NCBI RefSeq assembly: GCF_030384885.1
Contig: NZ_CP128613.1
Strand: one strand, 5' to 3'
DNA: 64,000 nucleotides
Source of the DNA: Escherichia coli
GTDB taxonomy: Bacteria; Pseudomonadota; Gammaproteobacteria; Enterobacterales; Enterobacteriaceae
Positions 5,252 to 8,200 of this stretch are shown here, in pieces. The position numbers are program-made. Each line of letters begins with the position of its first letter. The first letter of the stretch is position 1.

Positions 5252-8200
5252 TAATGGGCGGTATTCTGAAACGGCGATTGTCGTGAGAACAGAATGGTTG
5301 CATCAGAATACAGATATAAAAAAACCGACATGACAGTCGGTTTTTTTATTTTTTCCGCCCAAGACTTGGTGGTTCCGGACAGAAATGAAACAGTCCTCAT
5401 CTAGCAAATGGATTATAAGTCAGGATGCCTACATATTCAAACAGCTATGTTGGCGATACAATCCCGACGCTAGTAGTGATACTGCCTCAAGGAATTACCG
5501 CAGTGCGGAAAAGTACTTTTAAGTCCTGGTCAGGATACAGGTGGTGCTGATTCTGGTGCTCTAATTTGGAGAGAGGCAGTCCTCATCTAGCACATGAAGA
5601 AAATCATAGTTACAGGCAACGTAAGGGTAAGCTGTGATTGTCTTTCTCCCTTAAGGGAGCAACGGATGAAAACTTTTCTCGATAAAGTTCTCATCGTTCT
5701 TAAGGCGCTAATCGCGCTGCTGGAACTGATCCGCCAGTTTATTGAATAACTGAGGAAACGTAGCTAAGGCCGAAGGTTTACCACCTTCGGCCTTTAAAAA
5801 AACCGACATGACAGTTGGTTTCAGATTTATTGCCAAAATGCACGCTGTTCATGCCAGATGCGGCGTGAACGCCTTATCCGGCCTACAAAATCTCGAAAAC
5901 TCAATATATTGCACGATCTTCGTAGGCCAGATAAGACTTAGCGCATCAGGCAATCTAACACCTGTCATCACCCCGCAAACTGCCTGAACAGCGCCTTACC
6001 CTTAACCAGTCGCGCACCCAACCAGCCGCCGAAAAGCGACAGCAGCAGTGCACCGCTACAAGGCAGAACAATCCACAATCGCCAGTCTGGCTCCCACGGG
6101 AAATCAAACACTTTTGATTGCAGTACCGCCAGTGCCGTTTCCGCACCAATTGCGGCCACCAGGCCGGAGACAAACCCGAGCATGGCGAACTCACACCACA
6201 ATGTCGTGCGCAGCAGTTTTTTGCCCGCACCGAGAGTGCGCCACACCACCAGCTCCTGATGACGCTGACGCATTCCCACCTGCACCTGTGCCAGCAACAG
6301 CAACATACCGCAGGCGGTGACCAGCACCACCATCACTTCCAGCGCCCGACTTACCTGCTCCAGCACCTGACCGACCTGTTTTAAAATCGCGCCAATGTCT
6401 AACAGGCTAATGGTCGGGAACTGGCGGTTGAGTTGCGTCAACATGCCGTTGCCATTCTCCCAGCGGAAACTGGTAAGCCAGCTCTGCGGCTGCCCGTCTA
6501 ATGCCCCTTCCGGGAAAATAAAATAGAAATTAGGCCGCAGACTTTCCCAGTCCACTTTGCGCAGGCTGGTCACTTTAGCGCGGAACTCCTGGGTATCGCC
6601 CATAAAGGTGACGGTATCGCCGAGGGTAACATTTAAGCGTTTCGCCAGCCCCTCTTCCATCGATACTTCATCGGCTTTTGGCGGCCAGTTACCAGCGACA
6701 ATCGGATTATGATCGGGCCGCGTATTTTGCCAGGTGAGATTGAGTTCGCGGTTGAGCGCCTCATCTTCATTGCCTTCTGTCGGCTTGCCGTTAATCGCCG
6801 TCAGCCGCGCCCGCACCACCGGATAAAACGATTCCGGGACTATCTGATGTTCCGCGAGGAACGCTTTTAGCGGAGTAACCTGTTCTGTGGCGATGTTGAT
6901 TAAAAAGTAGTTAGGACTTTCTGGCGGTAGCTGCTGTTGCCAGCGATCGAGCAGATCGCCACGCAACACCAGCAACAGTGCCAGCAGCATAAAGGAGAGC
7001 GAAAATGCCGAAAGCTGGCTTAACGTTGACCACGGCTGACGTAACAGGCGGCTAACCGCCAGGCGCAGAGGTAGCGATTTCAGCGTCATGCGGCGAAGTA
7101 CATTCAGCAGCATCCAGCCCAGCACACCGCACAGCAAAGCCAGTACTACCGCGCCCGCCAGCACCGCCCAGAGCAGCATACTGCCGCCCATTAATCCGGC
7201 GAGCAGCAGCACAACCACCACACTGACAATCGGCAGATAAAACTTGAGCGGCCAGACGTTCGCGACCACATCATTACGCAATACGCGTAAAGGCTGTGTT
7301 GCCAGCAACAAGCGGTACGGTCGTAGCCCCACCAGCAGCGAGATGACCGTCATGGTGCCAAGCGCCCACAGCCATGGCCAGAGGCTGGCAGGCGGTAGTG
7401 CGGCAGGCAGAACGGGCTTGAGCAGCACCATCAACACGTTTTCGAACAACAGGCCTATCGCCCCGCCGGTAACGGCTGAAAGCGCCAGCACCATCAGCCA
7501 CTGACCGACGATTAGCTTACGCAGTTGCGCTCGCCCAGCCCCCAGCGTTTTGAGGATCGCCACCAGATCGTAGCGACTACGACAGTAATGATTCATCGCC
7601 ACCGCCACCGCTGCCACTGCCAGCAGCAAGGTCAGAAGCGCCGAAAGCAGCAGAAACTGTTGCGAGCGTTCCATCGATCGCCCCAGCGCGCCTTCGTCCT
7701 GTTCCAGACCGTACCAGCGTTGTTCGGGTTTAAGCTGAGGTAACAACCATTTCTCATAGCCGTCGAGCTGGTTCTCGCTGCCGCCGAATTTATAGCGCCA
7801 GGTGACCCGACTCCCCGGCTGCACGGCTCCGGTTTTATCAACATCCGCCAGATTCATCATCAGACGCGGAGCCATCTGGAAGGGGTTAAAACCGGAATCC
7901 GGTTCCTGAATCACTTCTCCGGCAATCCGCAAGGTGGCATCGCCCACGTCAATGGTGTCGCCCGTTTTCAGGTTAAGCAATGCCATCAGGCGTGGGGCCA
8001 GCAATACGCTGCCCGCCTGTGGTTTCAGGCCAGGGGGATTGGTTTGCAGATCGCCATACATCGGGTAGATATCATCCACCGCTTTGACGTTCGCCAGTTG
8101 CGGCGTATCGCCCGCAAAAGTCATCGTGGCGAAAGTCAGCTGCTTGCCGACTTTCAGGCCGCGCTTTTGCGCTTCCTCCAGCCACGCTTGCGGCACTTCG

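Follow-up and report, generated by a model that had tools for sequence, protein, structure and literature searches.

Our analysis indicates that the interval between mnmH/selU and ybbP in a 64,000-nucleotide stretch of Escherichia coli contig NZ_CP128613.1 (hereafter the window) harbors a module of ~570 bp, as placed by RefSeq annotation and alignment, which, judged from its sequence, is a chromosomal type I toxin-antitoxin module of the DinQ/AgrB family and a paralogue of dinQ-agrB of E. coli K-12. The module fits the published dinQ-like (dql) class (PMC5066626), and sequence comparison, RNA fold prediction and analogy with K-12 together make it very likely that it works as the K-12 system does, but without LexA control. 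As the toxin gene is already annotated in RefSeq and the dql class has been published (PMC5066626), the finding is correct but already known. What the analysis adds is an unannotated antitoxin gene, the recognition that "damage-inducible" is probably a mislabel, corrected coordinates for the promoter and the antisense target, and the allele structure of the site.

There are 73 open reading frames (ORFs) of at least 20 amino acids within positions 3500 to 8000 of the window, so a 27-codon ORF alone is not significant; this one gains significance because a curated DinQ model and the Rfam AgrB model are both matched at the locus. A previous sequence-only reading of this DNA had proposed a DinQ-like ORF at 5666 to 5749, and the translation given there is exact (MKTFLDKVLIVLKALIALLELIRQFIE, then a stop codon). 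The peptide scores 40.9 bits against NCBIfam NF041472 (toxin_DinQ; curated cut-off of 30, E=1.8e-10). In BLASTP it is identical to K-12 DinQ at 15 of 19 core positions, and RefSeq gives it the name dinQ, all of which bears out the proposed likeness. Against the DqlB profile NF041473 it scores 24.5 bits, below the cut-off of 35, and it thus falls outside the DqlB subgroup. On the opposite strand, Rfam RF02891 (AgrB) matches 5404 to 5316 over the full model (positions 1 to 84) with 51.9 bits (gathering threshold of 40, E=1.9e-07), and this is the single AgrB match at the locus. The corresponding small RNA (sRNA) gene lies upstream of the toxin gene, divergent from it and without overlap, and is not annotated in the RefSeq record. 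When the peptide and its flanks are aligned with K-12 dinQ and agrA, as that reading had recommended, the peptide matches and the whole 480 nt aligns with agrA-dinQ. Two further elements proposed there are also present, a plausible Shine-Dalgarno (SD) sequence (GGGAG), 6 nt upstream of the ATG, and a hairpin 3' of the ORF. The features of the module are the following (positions in the window, strand in parentheses).

5267 to 5837 (no strand): whole module, defined as an indel relative to empty selU-ybbP sites of E. coli, with a boundary ambiguity of 1 to 2 nt.
5316 to 5405 (minus): AgrB-like antisense sRNA gene (antitoxin) of ~90 nt, from Rfam RF02891, with its predicted 5' end at G5405 and its 3' end formed by the hairpin at 5316 to 5349.
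5316 to 5349 (both): perfect palindromic hairpin with a stem of 14 bp, bordered by an A-tract and, at its opposite end, a T-tract, from the terminator scan and as an inverted repeat.
5412 to 5440 (minus): sigma-70 promoter of the AgrB-like gene, TTGAAT-17-TATAAT, agreeing with the consensus at 10 of 12 positions.
5433 to 5469 (plus): inferred toxin promoter and start, with the -10 element TACAAT at 5457 to 5462, a 6-nt gap and +1 at G5469.
5476 to 5488 (plus): equivalent of K-12 element 1 (the 5' lock), pairing with 5573 to 5586 in the minimum free energy fold of 5470 to 5797.
5518 to 5521 (plus): putative equivalent of the K-12 +44 processing site, UUU/AAGUCCUGG, from alignment with K-12.
5568 to 5591 (plus): stretch of the toxin 5' untranslated region (UTR) predicted to be bound by the AgrB-like RNA, including the equivalent of element 2, from duplex prediction and covariation.
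5641 to 5659 (plus): hairpin CUCCC-UUAA-GGGAG, comprising the equivalents of element 3 with the anti-SD (5641 to 5650) and element 4 with the SD GGGAG (5655 to 5659).
5666 to 5749 (plus): toxin ORF encoding a DinQ-family peptide of 27 amino acids, from NF041472 and RefSeq WP_349808740.1.
5766 to 5794 (plus): terminator hairpin of the toxin mRNA, an inverted repeat with a 12-bp stem followed by UUUAAAAA and a predicted energy of -20.7 kcal/mol.
5795 to 5821 (plus): degenerate second copy of the agr terminator core (26 of 27 positions), from the direct repeat and the terminator scan.

The ends of the module were set against K56-43-un, FDAARGOS_1255 and DETEC-S589, whose empty sites were aligned with it.

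The pairing between the two transcripts is central to the assignment. The sequence-only reading had pointed to a 16-nt exact direct repeat, CAGTCCTCATCTAGCA, at 5391 to 5406 and 5577 to 5592. The repeat is present, the 16-mer has only these two copies on both strands of the window, and it extends to 20 nt with 19 identities (5391 to 5410 versus 5577 to 5596); we estimate the chance of a 16-nt exact direct repeat in 713 nt at ~6e-5. By sequence, the two copies are the 5' end of the AgrB-like RNA and its predicted target in the toxin 5' UTR. The divergence of the two genes means that RNAs copied from a direct repeat in the DNA are complementary to each other. The repeat had been compared with the repeated antisense RNA genes beside dinQ, which was right as to an antisense device and wrong as to a pair of genes, as only one agr gene is found here. 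An ungapped comparison of 30 nt gives 14 contiguous Watson-Crick pairs, or 15 if the sRNA starts at G5405, in a helix that continues to ~24 pairs, of which 4 are G-U, and has 1 mismatch. The duplex predicted for the 40 nt at the 5' end of the sRNA reaches -52.8 kcal/mol, compared with -25.5 ± 3.2 kcal/mol for shuffled sRNA 5' ends, i.e., ~8 standard deviations lower. Four core positions differ from K-12, and at each of them the agr copy and the target copy have both changed. K-12 AgrA was also considered as the cognate regulator of the paralogue and was rejected, as its value is -40.1 kcal/mol here, no better than the -44.4 kcal/mol obtained with dinQ.

The same complementarity is observed across the family. 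We collected loci from six plasmids, one Salmonella integrative conjugative element (ICE), two Yersiniaceae chromosomes and K-12, and an AgrB match lies upstream of the toxin on the opposite strand in each of them. This layout is shared by 9 other family loci. Since three of the plasmid loci have an identical antisense pair, the covariation test was performed with nine distinct sequences. Changes on both sides were found at 17 of the 30 helix pairs across the nine loci, and 91.9% of the cells are paired, compared with 34 to 44% when the partner is slid, with none of 500 shuffles reaching the observed value; because both sides are repeats in the DNA, they might also be kept alike by gene conversion. 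Each of the collected sRNAs pairs with its own mRNA.

The two genes have promoters of different quality. The promoter of the AgrB-like gene is the sole promoter-like site called by a consensus scan of 5200 to 6000; its -10 element ends 6 nt before G5405, a placement that agrees with the start of the Rfam model. The toxin promoter was placed by the geometry conserved in eight relatives, a -10 element followed by 6 nt and a G at +1, and with +1 at G5469 the 5' UTR has a length of 197 nt, compared with 192 to 209 nt in the eight relatives. A pairwise MAFFT alignment with K-12 had suggested GATACT as the -10 element; this candidate was discarded, as it left the 5' lock outside the transcript and the eight relatives place TACAAT in that role instead. 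The toxin -35 region (~5433 to 5440) overlaps back to back with the agr -35 element TTGAAT (5440 to 5435, minus strand), and a TTCAAA/TTGAAC motif is found at the same place in the Salmonella ICE and Yersiniaceae loci. The divergent promoters may compete for RNA polymerase.

In agreement with the sequence-only reading, no canonical LexA box (CTG-N10-CAG) was found in 5200 to 6000. The best site there has 1 core mismatch and 11 of 20 consensus matches, and the same scan, applied as a positive control, recovered the K-12 dinQ box with 0 core mismatches and 15 of 20 matches. At the position of the K-12 LexA box, the sequence here is GGCGATACAATCCCGACGCTA. As there is no LexA operator, expression is probably not SOS-induced, and the "damage-inducible" in the RefSeq product name is probably a misnomer inherited from K-12.

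In the K-12 primary transcript, element 1 pairs with element 2, and elements 3 and 4 close the SD; loss of 44 nt allows element 2 to pair with element 3, which opens the SD, and binding of AgrB to element 2 closes it again (PMC5066626). The long 5' UTR in the window displays, in silico, the same mutually exclusive pairings (1:2, 2:3 and 3:4) that would control the SD. In ViennaRNA folds of the full-length mRNA, 5476 to 5488 pairs with 5573 to 5586, the SD hairpin is closed, and the probability of an unpaired SD is 0.01. In an mRNA starting at 5518, 5568 to 5576 pairs with 5641 to 5649 and this probability rises to 0.17; when the target is forced to be single-stranded, mimicking bound sRNA, the SD hairpin re-forms and the probability is again 0.01. 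Control folds of K-12 dinQ, an RNA validated by experiment, gave 0.05, 0.21 and 0.02 for the full-length, shortened and sRNA-bound forms, respectively. With nine UTRs as input, RNAalifold still predicts the 2:3 duplex together with two stem-loops, showing compensatory changes; the sequence of the window fits this structure. Sequence conservation with the plasmid relatives starts at 5516 to 5521 (query positions 201 to 206).

By analogy with K-12, the full-length toxin mRNA would be inert, with 5476 to 5488 paired to the target region and the anti-SD at 5646 to 5650 closing the SD. Removal of ~50 nt from the 5' end would allow 5568 to 5576 to pair with 5641 to 5649, opening the ribosome-binding site. 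The AgrB-like RNA, on binding 5568 to 5591, would re-close the SD hairpin and probably create a substrate for RNase III. Peptide that accumulated would insert into the inner membrane and depolarize it. For toxicity or membrane depolarization on overexpression, and for rescue by sRNA base pairing, the precedents in the family are K-12 DinQ (PMC3567139) and DqlB from pOXA-48 (PMC12365149).

The module contains a repeated terminator sequence that the sequence-only reading had interpreted as a duplicated selU terminator. The core, AAAAAAACCGACATGACAG, does occur twice (19 nt; 5318 to 5336 and 5796 to 5814), with the second copy starting slightly upstream of the 5798 to 5822 given for it there; the full repeat has 26 of 27 identities (5317 to 5343 versus 5795 to 5821) at a spacing of 478 nt. 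The left copy, which the Rfam model covers, serves the AgrB-like RNA itself as terminator. As the hairpin at 5316 to 5349 (-16.4 kcal/mol predicted) is palindromic and has both an A-tract and a T-tract, it can also terminate selU on the plus strand; it was called as a terminator on both strands and is absent from empty sites. It did not exist beforehand as a terminator of selU. That the module is bracketed by a duplicated junction does not hold, as both copies lie inside the indel and are absent from empty sites. A target-site duplication of the selU terminator is rejected on the same grounds, with the copies placed asymmetrically, 50 nt and 16 nt from the ends of the indel. The second copy has a predicted energy of -8.5 kcal/mol and no AgrB match over it, and may be a weak second terminator or a remnant of a neighboring repeat unit. 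Its position is that expected for the start of a following unit in a tandem agr-dinQ array, a suggestion that is speculative. AgrB-like RNAs also gave sub-threshold Rfam matches to OrzO-P, of 22.5 bits in the window (5290 to 5347) and 37.5 bits in the stretch of a relative (2673 to 2742), against a gathering threshold of 60; the zor 5' UTR has been reported to resemble the 5' UTR of plasmid dinQ genes (PMC11264685, 2024).

A comparison with known systems places the locus close to, and distinct from, K-12 dinQ-agrB. The two have in common a 27-residue peptide with the core IVL-ALIALLELIR, a divergent and non-overlapping AgrB sRNA whose 5' end pairs with the UTR upstream of the ribosome-binding site, and a UTR of ~195 nt in which four elements pair in mutually exclusive ways, together with an SD hairpin; the toxin terminator aligns with that of K-12 dinQ and is identical in design. 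They differ in their site (selU-ybbP here, arsR-gor in K-12), in the number of agr genes (one here, two in K-12) and in the LexA operator(s), present in K-12 only, and the gene here is not an orthologue of canonical dinQ (b4613). The antisense core is shorter and weaker here, with changes matched on both sides. The toxin gene starts with ATG instead of GUG, with three codons more after the start and three fewer near the C-terminus, and the module is found in ~21% of genomes, whereas nearly all have a dinQ-type match.

The locus resembles the dql genes (Kristiansen 2016) in its sigma-70 promoter, which has no LexA box, in its SD and Rho-independent terminator and in the conserved dinQ-like 5' UTR, and it has the signature residues and lies outside arsR-gor. 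The dql genes occur in chromosomes and plasmids of Enterobacteriaceae, in some strains beside dinQ (PMC5066626), and DqlB-agrB of pOXA-48 is an addiction module that depends on base pairing (PMC12365149). Unlike dql/DqlB, the locus described here occupies a single fixed position in the chromosome, with core genes on both sides, and falls below the DqlB cut-off. A divergent, non-overlapping antisense RNA acting on a long 5' UTR is also a feature of TisB-IstR1, ZorO-OrzO and ShoB-OhsC, whose primary transcripts are inert until 5' processing (summarized in PMC5066626). The locus belongs to the sequence family of none of these three systems, and, unlike TisB, it is not under LexA control.

The peptide itself departs from DinQ in composition. 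It has 7 charged residues, compared with 4 in K-12 DinQ, and a hydrophobic moment of 1.45 compared with 0.86. Lysine 13, in the middle of the helix, replaces a glycine of DinQ and is retained across the RQFI[DE] subfamily; judged from the sequence, it makes the predicted helix amphipathic like TisB, not a plain hydrophobic span. With its charge and amphipathicity, the peptide is more TisB-like than DinQ is. Oligomerization of the peptide may be needed for action on the membrane. The motif ...IVLKAL[IV]ALLELIRQFI[DE] is common to the copies in Salmonella, Yersiniaceae, Klebsiella and Enterobacter.

RefSeq presents this one gene under two protein models, as seen in NZ_CP027579.1 and other RefSeq records: WP_349808740.1 (27 amino acids) and the older WP_001308457.1 (51 amino acids), both with the product name "damage-inducible type I toxin DinQ". 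RefSeq uses the name dinQ for it in more than 1,000 genomes, a dinQ annotation is present in all sampled carriers whose module is intact, and the exact 27- and 51-residue sequences are each found, named DinQ, on at least 1,000 public contigs. The proteins of relatives, retrieved with the 51-residue ORF as the query, carry the precomputed family PF28061 (DinQ); a Pfam-A scan of the 51-residue ORF itself gave no match.

The distribution of the module was examined in 5,426 complete E. coli genomes, with an intact module defined as at least 80% of the core at 5405 to 5797. An intact core is present in 1,130 of them (~21%), while some dinQ-type match is found in 5,416; the source genome has two such places. 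Counting matches that include the flanks, the number is 1,317. A deleted form, examined in PK8261 and Yu5, has lost 108 bp in frame (window 5578 to 5685), including the sRNA target, the SD and the start codon, and has kept the agr gene. The endpoints of this deletion are the near-repeats AGTCCTCATC (5578 to 5587) and AGTTCTCATC (5686 to 5695). In the deleted form, the NCBI Prokaryotic Genome Annotation Pipeline (PGAP) calls a 25-residue "dinQ" (WP_349809132.1), apparently from a non-canonical ATT start codon.

In E. coli the selU-ybbP interval exists in at least three alternative alleles, the module, an empty site, and other sequence straight after selU. Most other genomes have a different sequence directly after selU; the K-12 version is the rhsD island, which comprises ybbC, ylbH, ybbD and ylbG (positions 3832 to 11133 of the K-12 stretch compared). 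Intact modules apparently never occur with an island and seem always to sit where selU and ybbP are contiguous, because 1,130 intact copies and ~187 deleted forms add up to the 1,317 matches. Among six sampled genomes, three coding polymorphisms (5698, 5731 and 5734) are all synonymous, and no variation occurs in the repeats, in the SD hairpin or along the body of the sRNA. A search with one genome per species found the module at the same site, with 98% identity, in Escherichia sp. E1V33, the sole genome with both 16-mers; the other 10 matches of the 16-mer are single, come from unrelated taxa, and are read as chance.

Several explanations other than a working DinQ/AgrB module were weighed. 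That the ORF is a chance reading frame between the selU terminator and the palindromic elements before ybbP, accompanied by coincidental repeats, has next to no probability in our view. Short ORFs are plentiful here and the count from the promoter scan does not exceed that of shuffled sequences, but two independent curated models, one for protein and one for RNA, score over their thresholds, the 480 nt align with K-12 agrA-dinQ, and the helix covaries across the family, which together refute this explanation. It is also very improbable that the true product is the longer 51-residue ORF (5594 to 5749, MKKIIVTGNV...) of WP_001308457.1. This frame is open, is annotated in some genomes and is found on at least 1,000 contigs, as noted above, but the ATG at 5594 is preceded by CCTCATCTAGCAC and has no purine-rich SD, the extension runs across the sRNA target and the conserved structure of the UTR, and the DinQ model covers only residues 29 to 50. 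The upstream frame is not conserved in the relatives and has no counterpart in K-12, and the spacing between SD and start that is kept in the family points to a start at 5666, which aligns with the G/ATG start of the relatives. Substitutions in rare alleles of the 51-residue ORF number 10 in the N-terminal extension and 8 in the core, favoring neither start.

A number of observations weigh against a module that works as in K-12. Of all sampled members of the family, the window has the weakest antisense pairing (-36.6 kcal/mol over the first 30 nt, compared with -41 to -59 kcal/mol in the relatives), and its 19 Watson-Crick and 6 G-U pairs of 30 sum to less than the 23 and 4 of K-12 AgrA, which gave no protection from DinQ (PMC5066626). 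Unlike AgrA, whose pairing is broken after 8 nt, the sRNA here has an unbroken 5' block of 14 Watson-Crick pairs, or 18 counting G-U. The toxin promoter is weak, with a poor -35 element, and is missed by the consensus scan, and the putative start at 5469 was placed by family geometry. Opening of the SD is predicted to be only partial in the shortened form (0.17, as given above), and the peptide is not a classical transmembrane segment, with a longest uncharged run of 6 residues compared with 12 in DinQ. The ~187 genomes with the deleted form (1,317 minus 1,130) mark the locus as dispensable. Minor toxin alleles include L18Q (57 contigs), L19Q (11 contigs), loss of the start codon, and R23L with a change in the spacer between SD and ATG (144 contigs); E20K is a further minor allele. 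These alleles look like sporadic inactivation of the toxin. Finally, the searchable literature yielded no publication on the selU-ybbP dinQ locus or its peptide.

Much of this could be accommodated if the locus were a decaying relic of a plasmid-type DinQ/AgrB cassette, its toxin barely expressed or its antitoxin control lost, and drifting toward loss. Such a relic would explain why the inner half of the antisense duplex has decayed to G-U pairs and mismatches and why the conserved +1 motif GTTAGCTCTG has changed to GCTAGTAGTG, and it would agree with the poor -35 element, the deleted forms, the leucine-to-glutamine and start-loss alleles, and the dispensability evident from the empty-site and island alleles. 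We nevertheless consider it unlikely. The intact core is kept in 1,130 genomes, and the sampled intact copies share WP_349808740.1 or its 51-residue model with synonymous coding changes only. Neither the six genomes nor Escherichia sp. E1V33 show any polymorphism in the agr body, in the repeats or in the SD hairpin. The agr promoter is close to the consensus, and the four switch elements are still complementary. A DinQ/AgrB-type module that works without LexA remains the reading that we favor.

As to its source, the closest relatives found are a plasmid-like Salmonella contig, a contig with tra genes and an ICE. The copy on the tra-gene contig has ~80% identity over 59% of the module, and the antisense target of the closest relative has one difference in its first 12 nt. 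Homologues are present in 1,694 PLSDB plasmid records, at 70 to 72% identity and starting at the +44 equivalent. No true plasmid in PLSDB has the identical antisense target, the three matches being chromosome-sized, and at the megablast level no plasmid resembles the closest relative. Those three records (CP061270.1, NZ_CP141089.1 and NZ_CP134663.1; 1.2 to 4.9 Mb) carry the module and look like misfiled chromosomes or fragments. A plasmid origin of the module is a reasonable inference.

This raises a broader possibility, in which a LexA-independent paralogue derived from the dql cassette of a conjugative plasmid, residing at a three-allele site, produces an AgrB-like RNA that acts in trans. 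Taken jointly, these claims are quite improbable. If they were true, a constitutive AgrB-like RNA could blunt the toxins of related plasmids in an anti-addiction role or, alternatively, could engage in cross-talk with the SOS-induced mRNA of canonical dinQ. For this non-cognate duplex, -36.7 kcal/mol is predicted, compared with -45.5 kcal/mol for the cognate one.

The known working of the DinQ/AgrB family is unchanged by this locus. It does imply that a second DinQ toxin, present in about one-fifth of E. coli genomes, should be counted in studies of type I toxins, persistence and SOS-linked depolarization in strains other than K-12. As the sRNA is missing from RefSeq, a deletion of "dinQ" or an sRNA screen in carrier strains could be misread. 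The locus also offers a natural comparison for how much antisense pairing is needed, with 14 to 15 perfect pairs and a G-U-rich extension to be set beside the effective AgrB and the ineffective AgrA of K-12.

Between the module and ybbP, at 5843 to 5935, there are palindromes of the repetitive extragenic palindromic (REP)/bacterial interspersed mosaic element (BIME) type, with weak, sub-threshold Rfam matches to naRNA4 and ES036. Their copy number varies among strains, with ~100 extra bases in K56-43-un, an expansion of ~200 bp in FDAARGOS_944, and almost none in DETEC-S589.

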